The notes under the pieces: generated by a model
Seen by the model: the letters and a program-made list of their open reading frames with translations, nothing else
Databases searched by the model: none
What the model was told of the DNA's origin: nothing
From: a virus
Lineage: Duplodnaviria; Heunggongvirae; Uroviricota; Caudoviricetes
Direction: 5' to 3' (one strand)
DNA length: 33,237 bases
Virus record (IMG/VR): IMGVR_UViG_2609459797_000007
Shown: positions 1 through 4,390 of the stretch, piece after piece
Position numbering within the stretch: position 1 is the stretch's first letter
How the letters are laid out: each line of letters opens with the position of its first letter
Translations under genes and position numbers: made by a program

Positions 1-981
1 TTAAAGCGATACGCCACCGGCAAGCGGATTTAGTGAGACAGCATTTTGCAGATAGTCTGGCGAAAGATGCGCGTAAACCATCGTTTGCTGAATGCTGGCA
101 TGCCCTAAAATCTGCTGTAACGCGATGATGTTTCCTCCGTTCATCATGAAATGACTTGCGAAGGTATGACGCAGAATATGAGTTGCCTGGTTCGGTGGTA
201 TGTCTGCTTTTACCGCCTTCAGAGTCAGACAAAATTTTTCATAGTCCACTTTAAACAGTTTCGCGCTTGCCTCCTTTTTGATGAGCTTTTCCAGTTCGGC
301 AGAAATTGGAACAGTACGCTTTTTCCCGTTTTTGGTCTTCAGGAACGTCACACGGCAATTGACGATCTGCGAGGGCTTTAATGTTGCCAGTTCAGACCAT
401 CGCGCGCCGGTGCTGACTCCCAGAAGGGCAATCAATCTTGCATCGCCGGTTAATGCATTTAGCAAACTGCTGATTTCTTCCTTTTCCAGAAATGTCATTT
501 CTGGGTTTTCTTCAGTCAGTGGTGGCAATCCATGCACTGGATGGGTGCCGAAAAACTCTTCCAACTGAATCAACTTGGTGAACATGCCTGAAAAACGGTA
601 CATATCACGGTTAATTGTTGATGCCTTGATACCGTCACGAAGTCGCATAGAACGGTAGTCCATCAGAAGCCGTTTGCTCACGCGGCTAACGGGTATGTCA
701 CCGATGCCGCCGATCGTCTTCGTGAGGTGGTTAAATTCCTTCTCACCGTGTTCATGGTTTTGACCGTGATACTTCCACCAGGCATCCAGTAATTCAGATA
801 GAGATCTGCGATCTGTTCTCTGGCCCGCCCATTCTTTCTGATTAGCGTTCGCTAATGTGTAGCGCTCAAAGGCAACTGCTTCAGCTTTTCTTTCAAATTT
901 CCGGCGGATGCGACGTCCTTCACGCCCGCGGGGTCTGATATCCACTTCATAACGCCCATCATCGAGTCTTTTGATAGTCAT
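1..981 (-). CDS. int: Phage integrase, tyrosine recombinase (P2 Int-like)
   Basis: 326-aa ORF with the tyrosine-recombinase pattern: ARWSEL (Arg), HILRHTFAS (H-x-x-R) and VYAHL (catalytic Tyr) in the C-terminal third. Leftmost prophage gene; its stop codon is at the window edge. Confidence 0.9.
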   Translation of the reverse strand: MTIKRLDDGRYEVDIRPRGREGRRIRRKFERKAEAVAFERYTLANANQKEWAGQRTDRRSLSELLDAWWKYHGQNHEHGEKEFNHLTKTIGGIGDIPVSRVSKRLLMDYRSMRLRDGIKASTINRDMYRFSGMFTKLIQLEEFFGTHPVHGLPPLTEENPEMTFLEKEEISSLLNALTGDARLIALLGVSTGARWSELATLKPSQIVNCRVTFLKTKNGKKRTVPISAELEKLIKKEASAKLFKVDYEKFCLTLKAVKADIPPNQATHILRHTFASHFMMNGGNIIALQQILGHASIQQTMVYAHLSPDYLQNAVSLNPLAGGVSL

Positions 982-1123: not shown

Positions 1124-1417
1124 TCAGCCAGTTTTGCGGCCTGAGGGTGACGAGGTTGTTTCGTCTTGCCCAGAGTGTGCGACGACCGGGGATATTTGCC
1201 CGGCTTCTGGTGCTGTGTCGTCAGTCATAATCCAAAGTGTGTACTTCTTGAATTGTGGGGCGTTAACGATCTGCTTCACAATCTGAAGGCCTGGTTCTTT
1301 ATGTCCTCCTTCGTAGTTCTTGAGCGAACTTAGTGCCACTCCACTGATTTCACAGAATTTTGCCTGTGTTAGCCCTTCTGCCTTCCGTATTGCCCGGAGC
1401 TTTTCCGATGTTTTCAT
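1124..1417 (-). CDS. C: Immunity repressor C (P2 C-type, short HTH repressor)
   Basis: 97-aa ORF with an N-terminal HTH (LTQAKFCEISGVALSSLKNYE) and a C-terminal QFKKYTLWIMTDD...SGQDETTSSPSGRKTG tail as I recall for P2 C. Position directly upstream of int on the same strand matches P2. Confidence 0.8.
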   Translation of the reverse strand: MKTSEKLRAIRKAEGLTQAKFCEISGVALSSLKNYEGGHKEPGLQIVKQIVNAPQFKKYTLWIMTDDTAPEAGQISPVVAHSGQDETTSSPSGRKTG

Positions 1418-1477: not shown

Positions 1478-1713
1478 TTAGGGCGAGAGTCCAGCAGGTC
1501 AGGAACCCTCCTGAGCCGTTTTAAAGCCGCTGGATCTTACAAGGTTAGCATGTAACCAAGTGAGGATGAATGATGCAGGGATATGTTGTTTATGTTGATT
1601 CTGGGGTGGTAGGCGGGGCATTACGCAAGGTCTATTCAGAATGCGGGGTGTTCGTGGGGGTTGTGCGGTATGAGTGAGCCGGTGCAAAACCGGCTCATAT
1701 AGCAGTGGACGAT

Positions 1714-2193
1714 TTAGCGTGGAATACCGACCGTTAACAAAGCAATTAACTTTTCAGGAAAATTAAGATGCTCCCGACTTTCAATTCCCATAGAAATACA
1801 TGCCTTGTTTCGAGCGGGGTTATCCATGCACTCCATTACAATGCTATCGAATTCCTCAATCATAGAGAGACGTGCGGCAATCTCATCCGTACTCAGTTTG
1901 TTAATATCATCAATAAGAGCGGAGTAGCGTTTAGTCTGTTGTTTTGCTGCTTCCGCCCTTTCTCCGAAATGCCAGGCAATGCGGCACCCGCTAAGAATGG
2001 CGATGACTCCACCGAACAACCAACTGAAAGAGCTATTAGCAAACACGGATGCGCCAAGTATCAGCACAAGGGCGTTGAGTACGGTATCAATACGGCGGTT
2101 GAATATTTCGCCTATACGCTCAAGCCAATAGCTATTCCATATCCGAAAAATCAAAGCGGATCGCTTCTGATACTCAGTTGGTTGGGTGTTCAT
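1714..2193 (-). CDS. Hypothetical membrane protein with two predicted TM helices and a ~85-aa soluble C-terminal domain; accessory cargo in the immunity region
   Basis: 159-aa ORF. Two hydrophobic stretches (IDTVLNALVLILGASVFA and FSWLFGGVIAILSGCRIAW) followed by a charged, helical C-terminus. GAGGA Shine-Dalgarno 10 nt upstream of ATG. Sits between C and cox where P2 has no gene. Confidence 0.6.
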   Translation of the reverse strand: MNTQPTEYQKRSALIFRIWNSYWLERIGEIFNRRIDTVLNALVLILGASVFANSSFSWLFGGVIAILSGCRIAWHFGERAEAAKQQTKRYSALIDDINKLSTDEIAARLSMIEEFDSIVMECMDNPARNKACISMGIESREHLNFPEKLIALLTVGIPR

Positions 2194-2199
2194 ATTTAT

Positions 2200-2285
2200 T
2201 TAATCCTCATCATCTTCGCCGCCTTTGCTTTTTTCTGGAGAGGGGGCGGGTTTTCTAGGTACGTGAAATTTATCCGTATCGGACA
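2200..2285 (-). CDS. Hypothetical small acidic peptide (28 aa, MSDTDKFHVPRKPAPSPEKSKGGEDDED), immediately upstream of the 2-TM gene
   Basis: ATG at 2285 preceded by GGAG (GGAGtaaattcATG on the minus strand). Stop lies 6 nt before the 2-TM gene start. The 63-aa version in the ORF track needs a TTG start without a good RBS. Confidence 0.35.
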
Positions 2286-2406
2286 TGAATTTACTCCTTG
2301 TGGTGGTGATGGTTACGCCCGTTCCGGCAAGAACTGAGGGCGTAAAAAATATACCACAAAACCCTGAGCCGGGCAGGGCTTTACCCGGCAACTAACTGGA
2401 GGTTTT

Positions 2407-2679
2407 ATGGAAGCAAATGACTATGTAATTCAGTACCCGCTAGACGCGGTTCATCCTGATAAGTTCGCGGAATTGCTGGGTAAACCACGCACAGCCGTAC
2501 AAACCATGATTGAAAAAAATAAGCTGCCGGTTATTGAGTTTCGTGATCCGTCGAAGCCAAAAGCGCGCGCGGGTGAAAAGCTGGTTTTTGTTCCTGAGTT
2601 CAATCGAGGCGTACGTGAGGCGTTTTATAACCGCCCTGTAGAACAGCGCGATGCCTGGTTGCTCTGGATGGGCCTCTGA
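2407..2679 (+). CDS. cox: Cox-like excisionase and early-switch regulator (P2 Cox family)
   Basis: 90-aa ORF; the motifs KLPVIEF..DPSKPKARAGEKLVFVPEFN...RDAWLLWMGL agree with my memory of P2 Cox (KLPVID...RAGEYWVY...DGWLMWLGL). GGAGG RBS. First rightward early gene, as in P2. Confidence 0.8.
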   Translation: MEANDYVIQYPLDAVHPDKFAELLGKPRTAVQTMIEKNKLPVIEFRDPSKPKARAGEKLVFVPEFNRGVREAFYNRPVEQRDAWLLWMGL

Positions 2680-3166: not shown

Positions 3167-3246
3167 TTAAATAACTGCAATCTGAATCTGTTTATTTACG
3201 GCATTTCTGCCGGGGCTTCGCTTTATCTTTTTTCAGGAGGTTGATT

Positions 3247-3414
3247 ATGACAATTCAAACAAATGAACGCGCGCACCTGCTTGGGTTGTTACGTATCAAA
3301 TTGACCTTACTGAAAAAAGAAAAGCTGTCCACCAATGAAATTTATCGCAGCCTGGAAGACTGGATCTACAACAGAGAAAAGGCCGCAGAAATCAAGGAGC
3401 AAAAAAATGGTTAA
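3247..3414 (+). CDS. Hypothetical small protein (55 aa, MTIQTNERAHLLGLLRIKLTLLKKEKLSTNEIYRSLEDWIYNREKAAEIKEQKNG)
   Basis: Not in the supplied ORF track (below size cutoff). ATG at 3247 with an AGGAGG RBS 7 nt upstream. Its 3' end overlaps the methyltransferase start. Confidence 0.4.
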   Translation: MTIQTNERAHLLGLLRIKLTLLKKEKLSTNEIYRSLEDWIYNREKAAEIKEQKNG

Positions 3415-4390
3415 TTCCCCTCTGATCTGGGCGGGCGGCAAGTCTCGCGCGATGCCTCATGTACTGGAGGCTTTGCCAAAGGGTGAATGTCTCGTTGAGC
3501 CTTTTGTAGGTAGTGGTAGTGTCTTTCTGAACACTGACTATAAAACCTATATTCTGTGTGATAGCAACGCAGCGCTTATGAACTTCTATTCAATATTGAA
3601 GAGCAATACTAAATCGTTGCTAGATGTCGCTGCTACTCTATTTGATGGCGGTAATAATGAAGATGCATATTATAAACGCCGCAATGAATTTAATGATTTT
3701 AATCGTGGTTTTCCCCAGCATAATAAAAAAACTTCTGATGGAAAGGTTTATTATCAGAGTGAACTTGTAAAGTTTGCAGCATTATTCCTTTATCTAAACC
3801 GTCATTGCTATAACGGTTTATACCGAGTGAATGGGAAGAATGAATTTAACGTTCCATTTGGTCGTCGCCGCAAGCCAATTTTCCCTGTTGCAGAGATCCA
3901 GCACTTTGCAAAACGAGCATATGAGAAAGGTGCTCAGTTTCTTTGCGCTGATTTCCGTTACACCATCCCTGTTGCTAGTCGCATATTTGAGCGCACAGTA
4001 ATTTACTGTGATCCGCCTTACCTGCCAGCGAGTAAAACGGCTGATTTTACCGCGTACGGCAAACCCTTCACTGTCGATGATCACCGTGACCTGGTTGAGT
4101 CATTGATTACCGCTCATAACAACGAAGGATGCCTGTCTGTTTTTTCCGGTAGCGATACCCCGGAAACCCGCAAAATTTACTACCCGTTCACCCTTAATTC
4201 ATTCGAAATCCGCCGATCTGTAGGGGCCAAATCTCGCAACTTGGCTGGCGAGGTGATCGGCTCTCTACGCGTTTGTGGTTGTTGTGGGCGTACTGGCGGC
4301 GGTTGTCCTGATTGCGGTGCTGTGATGGGTGATGCGACCTATTCAGAAATGGTTGCCTCTGGTGCTTTTGATGATCAGGAGGTGTTCTGA
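3407..4390 (+). CDS. dam: DNA N6-adenine methyltransferase (Dam-like, alpha-class order FxGxG then DPPY) with a Cys-rich C-terminal tail
   Basis: Motif I (VEPFVGSGSVF) and motif IV (VIYCDPPYLPASK) in Dam order. Start taken at ATG 3407 (AAGGAG RBS); the track's upstream start at 3335 lacks an RBS. C-terminal CGCCGRTGGGCPDCG looks like a zinc ribbon. Confidence 0.8.
   Translation: MVNSPLIWAGGKSRAMPHVLEALPKGECLVEPFVGSGSVFLNTDYKTYILCDSNAALMNFYSILKSNTKSLLDVAATLFDGGNNEDAYYKRRNEFNDFNRGFPQHNKKTSDGKVYYQSELVKFAALFLYLNRHCYNGLYRVNGKNEFNVPFGRRRKPIFPVAEIQHFAKRAYEKGAQFLCADFRYTIPVASRIFERTVIYCDPPYLPASKTADFTAYGKPFTVDDHRDLVESLITAHNNEGCLSVFSGSDTPETRKIYYPFTLNSFEIRRSVGAKSRNLAGEVIGSLRVCGCCGRTGGGCPDCGAVMGDATYSEMVASGAFDDQEVF

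Follow-up and report, generated by a model that had tools for sequence, protein, structure and literature searches.

How can two genes that point leftward lie between the immunity repressor gene C and cox, the first conserved early gene, of a P2-type prophage, and be tolerated there? The question is raised by IMG/VR virus record IMGVR_UViG_2609459797_000007, a stretch of 33,237 nucleotides (nt) from a Caudoviricetes virus, which as a whole is called the window here and to which positions refer unless another genome or locus is named. In its C-cox spacer a micro open reading frame (micro-ORF) of 28 amino acids (aa) is followed by a gene for a 159-aa membrane protein. The answer put forward is a tentative one. 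The locus may be read leftward in the lysogen, giving a micro-peptide and a stand-alone SLATT-like effector, and rightward in lytic growth through a ribosome-carrying 'bridge' ORF, with those effector codons that would be stops on the opposite strand removed by selection.

An insertion between C and cox

The window, which corresponds to IMG/VR contig UViG_2609460356_000007, is a P2-type prophage, and related genomes have its counterpart beside cpxP. The left end of the window contains the following.

1-981, minus strand: int, at the left end of the window
1124-1417, minus strand: C immunity repressor, 97 aa (HTH_3, E 6e-8; phrog_147, E 7e-38)
about 1569-2395: inserted cassette, about 830 bp (alignment against the E. 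coli ES1 prophage; edges uncertain by about 10 nt)
2407-2679, plus strand: cox, 90 aa (PF10743, E 1e-22; phrog_272, E 2e-45)

Beyond cox the order is a DUF4761-like gene, a Dam methylase gene and gpA. A preliminary description of this DNA had noted two leftward ORFs, on the strand of C and int, in a C-cox spacer of about 1 kb. Both are there and the spacer measures 989 bp. The coordinates given for the 159-aa ORF (1714-2193) were right, while the true end of the 28-aa ORF is 2286, one base further than the 2285 given.

That the two genes form a cassette inserted between C and cox is borne out by comparison with the prophage of E. coli ES1 (NZ_CM184353). The two prophages have about 84% identity across the aligned parts and an identical cpxP-int-C-cox order, but the C-cox spacer of ES1 is only 160 bp long and free of insert. 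Homology extends from C to about position 1568, is broken, and resumes from about 2396-2404, just before the cox ATG. The cassette is a genuine insertion because ES1 has the same layout with a 160-bp spacer. Spacers of P2-like switches are described as about 88-125 nt in the 186 type and as 'variable' for some C types (PMC3448106). No DNA nearly identical to the window was present in the phage collection searched, and an Rfam search gave a single match, at chance level (Twister-sister, E 2.9).

Nor is the cassette a conserved part of the P2 switch, since it is absent from ES1 and occupies other early-region positions elsewhere. It is found between C and cox in the window and in Pectobacterium, one or two genes past cox in Pantoea and Serratia, and deeper in the early operon in E. 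coli CP027323, Yersinia phage vB_YenM_42.18 and Fels-2. Within early lytic operons the membrane gene is antisense to the operon in each case, though its position varies. In lambdoid prophages it adjoins the S24 repressor and is convergent with it, and in one homologue locus it is flanked by cro-like and ydaT-like genes. The neighbours are only phage switch or early genes and the micro-ORF; no SMODS, SLOG, RT or other sensor or signal-generating partner was found among them. The cassette thus shows the presence and absence and the varying sites, at least five different early-region positions, that are typical of morons. On balance, comparison of these loci favours a self-contained accessory cassette, or moron, inserted with the orientation of C and int into the leader that runs from the early promoter Pe to cox.

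The membrane protein

The coding part of the cassette consists of two genes and their ribosome-binding sites.

2294-2299, minus strand: Shine-Dalgarno AAGGAG of the micro-ORF, 7 nt before its ATG (read from the sequence; conserved in the leader alignment)
2200-2286, minus strand: 28-aa proline-rich micro-ORF, MSDTDKFHVPRKPAPSPEKSKGGEDDED (translation; conserved upstream of homologues)
1714-2193, minus strand: 159-aa membrane protein with a SLATT-like helical hairpin and a cytoplasmic helical tail (phrog_6315, structure model, Ka/Ks)

Along its entire length the 159-aa protein matches phrog_6315 (E 5e-47). Its family has 26 close clusters, in Enterobacterales, and an exhaustive profile search extended it to 193 representative clusters, nearly all of them stand-alone proteins of 150-165 aa; the identical sequence is present in Salmonella enterica, E. 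coli and Kluyvera. Ka/Ks in the sense frame is 0.07-0.17, with synonymous sites saturated (pS 0.7-0.9), and profile searches still find minus-strand homologues at about 20% identity, their length and transmembrane (TM) hairpin conserved. The conservation of the family, the low Ka/Ks, the recurrence of the micro-ORF and its synonymous variation show that the 159-aa and 28-aa ORFs are real genes.

The two TM helices and soluble C-terminus that had been described were found again by hydropathy and in an AlphaFold 2 (AF2) model, the C-terminal part being helical. Hydropathy places the membrane segments at residues 38-52 and 58-74, approximately, with the 5-residue uncharged loop NSSFS between them. 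Basic residues are found on both flanks, and both termini are therefore predicted to be cytoplasmic. In the AF2 model (25-sequence alignment, pLDDT 82, pTM 0.77) helices 7-53 and 58-95 form a hairpin that is followed by three short helices. As modelled, the adjacent TM helices would make up a hairpin with flanking cytoplasmic helices, which is the arrangement of a SLATT domain.

SLATT domains are known from conflict systems and are predicted to be the pore-forming toxins of defence systems. The topology and remote-homology checks proposed in the preliminary description did reveal a likeness to such two-transmembrane (2TM) effectors, in the form of several weak sequence matches and of fold matches. 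The PADLOC model RTasSLATT matches the window protein weakly; among 120 family members, 11 match the PADLOC model of the CBASS 2TM effector (best E 7.6e-5) and seven match RTasSLATT. The NCBIfam models SLATT_1 (15.8 bits, cut-off 41) and SLATT_4 (15.4 bits, cut-off 55) both match at E 0.01 and are co-linear with the protein over residues 32-121, and Pfam gives weak SLATT matches in only three of the 120 members. A Snodgrassella member, which the family profile finds at E 1e-30, carries the UniRef name of a SLATT-domain protein. In a fold search of the viral structure library BFVD, seven of the top 17 matches are SLATT proteins (ranks 1, 5, 7, 8, 9, 12 and 17), with probability 0.84-1.00 and TM-score 0.39-0.58, but E only 0.03-0.3. 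A distant relationship of the 159-aa protein to SLATT 2TM effectors is probable.

No match to SieB, RexB, T4 Imm or holin families was obtained in Pfam, PHROGs, NCBIfam or PADLOC at E up to 1, and no PADLOC system was matched at significant E-values. The sole lysis-related match was to an Rz-like spanin (E 0.93), and the 159-aa gene lies outside the lysis cassette.

A stop-free frame opposite the membrane gene

On the plus strand, the direction of the early operon, the cassette is tiled by three ORFs.

1768-2337, plus strand: 189-aa 'bridge' ORF, codon-aligned with the complement of the 159-aa gene and kept open
1570-1677, plus strand: short early-strand ORF, 35 aa, at the ancestral cox ribosome-binding position; tentative (ORF list, tiling)
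1674-1766, plus strand: short early-strand ORF, 30 aa, with a GTGA overlap; tentative (ORF list, tiling)

Because the two frames are codon-aligned, a stop in the bridge ORF would be a TTA, CTA or TCA sense codon in the membrane gene. These codons are nearly missing from the first 140 codons of the gene in 17 P2-type homologues (3 of 2380), and are found again in the 3' tails of the same 17 genes beyond the start of the bridge ORF (11 of 284). Other window genes have between 1 and 37 of them, about 3% of codons. Counted among leucine and serine codons only, they make up 3 of 480 in embedded loci versus 36 of 93 elsewhere (Fisher p = 3e-28). Across the 19 embedded loci examined the complementary frame is open, with interruptions in L035 and Fels-2 only. 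No such codon at all occurs in L091 or in L178 (the locus with the cro-like and ydaT-like neighbours), two distant homologues likewise embedded antisense in lytic operons, and homologues outside lytic operons (L017, L177 and L180) have 11-17 complement stops each.

Two other causes were considered and rejected. General avoidance of rare codons does not apply, as AGA, AGG, ATA and CGA, together with GTA and ACA, are used normally in the membrane genes. Codon usage specific to a clade does not apply either: the sequence of L178 is nearer to those of the non-embedded homologues than to that of the window, so that context explains the open frame better than clade does.

The complementary frame has a Ka/Ks of about 1. 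Free of stops and at this ratio, it is a frame that is kept open while the encoded protein drifts; the purifying selection on both strands that marks antiparallel overlapping genes is not found. The same values bear on the reverse reading of the locus, in which the real gene would be the plus-strand one, for a 189-aa early protein, and the 159-aa ORF its shadow. The plus-strand ORF is the longer of the two and has the orientation of the early operon. Nearly all P2-type loci keep it open, often with an ATG and a GGAG-like site, and the annotators of Yersinia phage vB_YenM_42.18 and Fels-2 chose this strand. The reverse reading is hardly credible all the same. Against a plus-strand Ka/Ks of about 1 stands 0.07-0.17 on the minus strand, it is the minus-strand protein that profiles follow to about 20% identity with length and TM hairpin intact, and the non-embedded homologues keep this protein despite their complement stops. 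The 189-aa ORF has no family match in Pfam, PADLOC or PHROGs.

In the public annotations of these two phages, the genes called, gp08 of the Yersinia phage (L002, 3312-3977) and STM2733.1 of Fels-2 (L003, 3408-3812), are the unconstrained complementary ORF, and the conserved membrane protein and micro-ORF on the opposite strand are omitted.

The bridge ORFs usually begin with an ATG that has a GGAG-like site before it, and in L010 the start lies a few nt past the stop of the preceding early gene. In the window the tiling runs 1570-1677, 1674-1766 and 1768-2337, and is followed by 69 structured nt up to cox. In Pectobacterium-type loci with the cassette between C and cox, an ORF of 196-199 aa with a strong ribosome-binding site is followed by short overlapping ORFs that reach or come near the cox ATG. 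In some loci the complementary open frame is much longer, 370-456 codons, and continues far past the cassette (L010, 3167-4537; L043 and L046, 4293-5423); these long frames cross the promoter and helix module described below and overlap a called 73-aa early gene in another frame.

The micro-ORF

The stop codon of the micro-ORF lies 6 nt before the ATG of the 159-aa gene, and its final codons contain the GAGGA Shine-Dalgarno (2204-2208) of that gene. A micro-ORF is present directly upstream in all homologues with at least 47% identity and also in distant ones (about 26-32% identity), with a gap of 3-15 nt between its end and the ATG of the membrane protein. Judged from these loci, the two are a conserved gene pair that travels together. 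Searched over 2203-2286, the micro-ORF matches no Pfam or PHROG family. Its peptides in other loci are as follows.

Pantoea: MSDMDKFHVPRKPAPSREKNQDEHDDEED
Fels-2: MSDSDNFHVLPRPAPAPKPEPGQDKK
L017: MERCVDKYEERHVPLRQKPPVPPKPPKEN
L177: MSGNGYDHFDKHSPAYQRPAPKPEPKPKEENKG
L178: MSETPNNKGNEPRRPIPPPKK
L091: MSRSVGAHRPNKPAPPAPPKDGK

The common core is [FY]-H-[VI]-[PL]-x-[KR]-P-x-P, or [KR]-P-x-P in a looser form. Codons for conserved core residues vary synonymously, which points to selection on the peptide. The peptide had been described as acidic. An acidic tail is indeed present, but it is variable and owed in part to the embedded GAGGA that serves the membrane gene as ribosome-binding site, and what is conserved is a proline-rich, basic core.

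In lambdoid loci (L017, 4496-4650; L177, 2181-2330) the membrane gene is also followed by additional proline-rich micro-ORFs that share the motif, with the peptides GHVPPKPKPPKPKK, MSRPIEPFHIPPRPRPPDPGPK and FHAPRTPRPPSPKPK...GHVPRSPRPKPVPAPAPKK. The C-rich tail of the window cassette has proline-rich ORFs on the minus strand as well, one of 20 aa at 1636-1698 and one of 62 aa with PPRTPR at 1499-1687. These could be remnants or a plain by-product of the C-richness.

A promoter and helix module

In all P2-type loci the DNA upstream of the micro-ORF has a fixed order: arm a (GCCGGG), a T-rich linker, arm b (CCATG-like), arm a' (CCCGGC), a G and arm b'. Then follow TTTT-GTGGTAnnnT, a stem-loop, an A/C-rich tract with AAGGAG, and the ATG. 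In the window this module spans 2294-2388 and its interleaved helices occur in a single copy.

2362-2388: two interleaved helices, a 2383-2388 with a' 2368-2373 and b 2374-2378 with b' 2362-2366 (covariation)
2348-2356, minus strand: extended -10, TGGTATATT, with the hexamer at 2348-2353 and TG at 2355-2356 (consensus; predicted start about 2341-2343)
2313-2345: hairpin 2, TTACGCCC...GGGCGTAA, with an inner GTTC/GAAC stem (compensatory stem changes between loci; fold)

In the -10 motif TGnTAnnnT, the TG, T-12, A-11 and T-7 are invariant in 24 P2-type modules and the three middle bases vary freely; the motif is not recognisable in two lambdoid loci, L017 and L177. With a start predicted at about 2341-2343, the stem-loop would form the 5' end of the cassette mRNA.

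The interleaved helices are supported by covariation in 26 sequences. Helices a:a' and b:b' have 90.9% of cells paired, versus 26-44% with slid partners; seven of the 11 pairs change on both sides, and the observed score was reached in 0 of 500 shuffles. On the cassette strand a connecting loop of 1 nt would keep the two helices from forming together and leave them as alternative hairpins, and most loci have a T-run after the 3' hairpin. On the early-operon strand the loop lengths (L1 1 nt, L3 5-7 nt) fit an H-type pseudoknot, and the geometry favours such a structure there. Fold energies in 28 modules gave no strand bias (mean difference -0.5 kcal/mol, 16 vs 12), and wobble asymmetry is uninformative since the helices hold almost only Watson-Crick pairs.

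With arm a no more than about 8 nt from the boundary of the insertion, the module delimits the mobile unit on this side. At least 12 other P2-like early regions have this module in front of unrelated cargo genes, between C and gpA and always on the strand of C and int, and in Salmonella phages SEN4 and SEN5 it is at the C-cox site itself. Judging from these loci, P2-like phages seem to have a cargo hotspot with a shared 'plug' in their early region. Searched with a loose DNA pattern, the module gave mostly chance matches, and 16 of 122 passed a pairing filter. Loci in which it precedes unrelated small cargo (about 58-160 aa) are L070, L072, L090, L091, L093, L095 and L107 (SEN4/5); further ones are L117 (vB_YpM_115), L119-L121 and L138, all antisense to the early operon.

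In L091 (10734-10902) a second copy of the module lies 885 bp upstream of the cassette copy. Only an ORF of 21 aa follows this second copy, which is directed into an early-strand gene of 241 aa and may drive antisense RNA rather than protein. In the window the -10 region UUUUGUGGU is complementary to an ACCACAA tract just upstream of the Shine-Dalgarno (2300-2360), and apparent compensatory changes in this pairing are seen in L035 (TTAGTGGT/ACCACTAA) and L030 (GTGTGTT/AACACAC).

The switch region and the predicted end of the leftward transcript

Between the repressor gene and the membrane gene lie the switch DNA and the 3' tail of the cassette.

1418-1568: retained switch region, homologous to the entire 160-bp C-cox spacer of insert-free ES1
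1418-1423 (TTGACA) and 1442-1447 (TATATT), plus strand: Pe-like promoter with an 18-bp gap, 11 of 12 matches in a promoter scan; conserved in ES1
1534-1539, minus strand: candidate -10 of the repressor promoter Pc, TAAGAT (Pc probably within 1418-1568)
1569-1713, minus strand: 3' tail of the cassette transcript, 145 nt, candidate Rho-type terminator (38% C, 14% G)
1675-1697, minus strand: 9-bp hairpin without a U-run after the stop of the 159-aa gene (repeat analysis; fold z-score -3.4)

A consensus search could not locate Pc, and its placement rests on homology. The ES1 spacer must hold both Pe and Pc and equals the 150 bp beside C, and Pc therefore probably also lies within 1418-1568. With Pe and Pc both remaining beside C, the insert is in the leader from Pe to cox, upstream of Pc and not between Pc and C.

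This speaks against an arrangement that had been proposed at the outset, with Pc beside cox and both cassette genes at the head of a lysogenic operon with C, as rexAB is with cI in lambda. The cassette does share the strand of C and int and lies directly upstream of C. The 150 bp beside C, however, correspond to the whole switch spacer of ES1 and include the 11/12 match to Pe, so that switch DNA separates the cassette from C. The cassette has a promoter module of its own, which also fronts unrelated cargo genes, and the same cassette occurs far from any repressor gene. A passenger of the rexAB type would lie inside the transcription unit of the repressor and be driven by its maintenance promoter, which by all appearances is not so here. 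There is a weaker variant, in which cassette transcripts from their own promoter read through into C. The 159-aa gene is not followed by a canonical intrinsic terminator, and some read-through into C is therefore possible; what stands in its way between the cassette and the switch is the hairpin and the tail rich in C and poor in G. Co-transcription with the repressor is on the whole improbable.

The hairpin and C-rich tail may act as a Rho-type terminator ahead of the switch. As a moron the cassette has a conserved promoter motif, TGnTAnnnT, that is shared with other cargo, and at its other end a hairpin and C-rich tail that are not a canonical terminator.

The switch region also holds repeats. 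A direct repeat, ATTTGACAAGGTT / ATCTTACAAGGTT, is found at 1416-1428 and 1534-1546, 118 bp apart; the first copy overlaps the -35 of Pe and the second contains the candidate Pc -10 TAAGAT on the minus strand. A 12-bp inverted repeat, GCCCCAAAAGGT/ACCTTTTAGGGC, lies at 1449-1484, at the predicted start of Pe. Both the direct and the inverted repeats are candidate operators for C or Cox. One arm of the hairpin after the 159-aa gene, TGAGCCGGTGCAAAACCG (1675-1692), resembles a stretch of the conserved switch, TGAGCCGTTTTAAAGCCG (1512-1529), possibly a relic of the recombination event that brought the insert there. At 1600-1660 the plus strand has four G-runs (GGGG...GGGG...GGGG...GGGGG) inside the 35-aa ORF, with 38% G, and a G-quadruplex on the early strand is possible there.

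Comparison with known systems

The cassette protein resembles SLATT 2TM effectors in its two-helix membrane hairpin, its flanking cytoplasmic helices and its size in the range of about 150-180 aa. It differs from SLATT systems in being stand-alone, with no nucleotide cyclase, SLOG or RT partner and no DRT10-type non-coding RNA; its constant companion is instead the proline-rich micro-ORF.

The lambda genes rexA and rexB are abortive-infection genes expressed in the lysogen, and their membrane protein is thought to depolarise the cell. They lie downstream of cI and are transcribed with it from PRM/PRE, and RexB has four TM helices. Like them, the cassette is beside the immunity repressor, on the repressor's strand, and includes a membrane protein; unlike them, it is upstream of the promoter region of the repressor, has a predicted promoter of its own and lies inside a lytic leader. 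The cassette proteins have no sequence match to rexAB in a Pfam scan. SieB of P22, lambda and Rac is an inner-membrane protein of about 160-190 aa with its own early-region promoter that aborts superinfecting phages, and Esc, a small co-encoded modulator, is an internal in-frame product of it. The likeness consists in a prophage membrane protein of similar size with a small co-encoded partner. The difference, besides the lack of a SieB match in Pfam at E up to 1, is that Esc is internal whereas the cassette micro-ORF is upstream and proline-rich.

P2 carries variable cargo that protects the lysogen in the accessory genes old, tin and Z/fun (Rousset et al. 2022, PMC9122126). The searched parts of that paper mention neither cox nor an 'early operon' and place the hotspot elsewhere in the genome, while the cassette is antisense in the early-operon region behind a shared promoter and helix module.

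The micro-ORF is comparable to regulatory leader peptides in that it is very short, ends a few nt before the next gene, carries the ribosome-binding site of that gene and is rich in proline, several homologues having runs of PP or PPP. It differs from leader and arrest peptides as no known arrest motif is conserved and the window peptide has no PP, and as the distance from motif to stop varies between 17 and 26 residues and similar extra peptides occur downstream in lambdoid loci. The literature searched contained no description of the cassette, the proline-rich micro-ORF, the shared promoter and helix module or the context-dependent stop-free complementary frame. The cassette can be classed, from its sequence and surroundings, as a prophage moron with a putative 2TM effector, of which the micro-ORF, the module and the stop-free frame appear to be undescribed.

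Proposed mechanism and function

Rho-dependent termination acts on untranslated RNA. In the lysogen, with Pe off, the cassette would be transcribed from its own promoter and not from Pc, and leftward transcripts would be halted before the switch by the hairpin and the C-rich Rho-type tail. The membrane protein would be a latent effector that forms pores or depolarises the membrane, aborting or excluding phages that infect the cell, and the micro-ORF would gate its translation or serve as a small partner; the proline-rich micro-ORF might, for instance, gate the effector by sensing the translational state. Once Pe fires, ribosomes would translate the bridge ORF and cover the early transcript over about 830 nt, and the covered transcript would escape Rho and reach cox. 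The full-length antisense early RNA may also silence the effector gene during the phage's own lytic growth. Polarity has a part in P2/P4 biology, where the P4 protein Psu suppresses it (PMC11718236).

Several observations weigh against this mechanism. The promoter is assigned by consensus, and the extended -10 overlaps covarying helices whose functional strand is left undecided by fold energies; the GTGG/CCAC long-range pairing needs transcripts that include the -10, from read-through or as early-strand RNA. Every SLATT sequence match falls below the curated cut-offs, and searches against solved structures gave generic helical hairpins only, with no solved SLATT structure found for comparison. 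Without a SMODS, SLOG or RT partner the protein has no obvious activator. The micro-ORF is missing in the subgroup L046-L053, which has its own GGAGG site. In L036-L038 (upstream of 4995) it appears frameshifted, with ...QKFHEPGYPALCAD in one frame and ...DDDEG in another, beside an intact membrane gene. Its role is therefore accessory or regulatory, and not that of an obligatory partner of the membrane protein. The short tiling ORFs of 35 and 30 aa could be due to chance. Finally, two other cargo genes with the same module (155-159 aa), also embedded antisense, have a complement that is not open. A rule that all embedded cargo genes need an open complement is rejected by these two genes, and the requirement is therefore specific to the 2TM family and not general. 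The complement has 22-30% C for the 2TM genes versus 17-20% for these two AT-rich genes, which may be poor Rho substrates, or not toxic.

The same two genes bear on another explanation of the open frame, that it serves not the passage of ribosomes to cox but a full-length antisense RNA that silences the effector, or some reason unconnected with translation. A need specific to toxic cargo would fit the closed complements of the two genes, as would the higher C content opposite the 2TM genes. A full-length antisense RNA would still have to be shielded from Rho by translation, which makes it a variant of the mechanism above and not a true alternative, and the restriction to three codons and the dependence on context exclude a general codon bias. 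As a separate explanation it is rather doubtful.

An anti-phage role in exclusion or abortive infection, as suggested in the preliminary description, is plausible for the cassette, on the strength of its protein family and position. The cassette could instead be a toxin/antidote addiction module, or a tuner of host membrane physiology or of prophage lysis or induction. The tight coupling of a small membrane protein to a micro-ORF would suit such functions, as would the lack of a sensor domain and of a significant PADLOC system match, and one homologue immediately precedes a terminase gene and shares the strand of its neighbours. On the other hand, SLATT-type domains belong to conflict systems, location beside immunity regions in antisense moron orientation is typical of exclusion genes expressed in the lysogen, and the dispensability of the micro-ORF in one subgroup argues against an obligatory antidote. 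Functions of this kind are unlikely, if less so than co-transcription with the repressor.

If the proposed mechanism is true, a toxic antiparallel gene can be tolerated inside an essential operon without Rho-dependent polarity, with the effector probably off in lytic growth. The removal of antisense stops suggests that phages can make an inserted gene 'transparent' to the operon it interrupts. Were this general, depletion of antisense stops could flag embedded accessory genes computationally, and it would be a new example of selection on translation itself and not on a protein product. The family, of about 190 clusters, is uncharacterised and so far mainly found in prophages beside immunity regions, nearly always preceded by the micro-ORF; with two such small parts, the system would be a very tractable model for how SLATT effectors become activated. 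The early-region cargo site of P2-like phages may have escaped surveys of defence hotspots, and annotators often call the wrong strand there.

A neighbouring early gene

The Dam-like methylase gene beyond cox (3335-4390) has a longest ORF of 351 aa, which starts 24 codons ahead of the 327-aa gene annotated for related contigs. The protein ends in a cysteine-rich tail, CGCCGRTGGGCPDCG, and a 57-aa ORF (3241-3414) overlaps the start of the methylase ORF.

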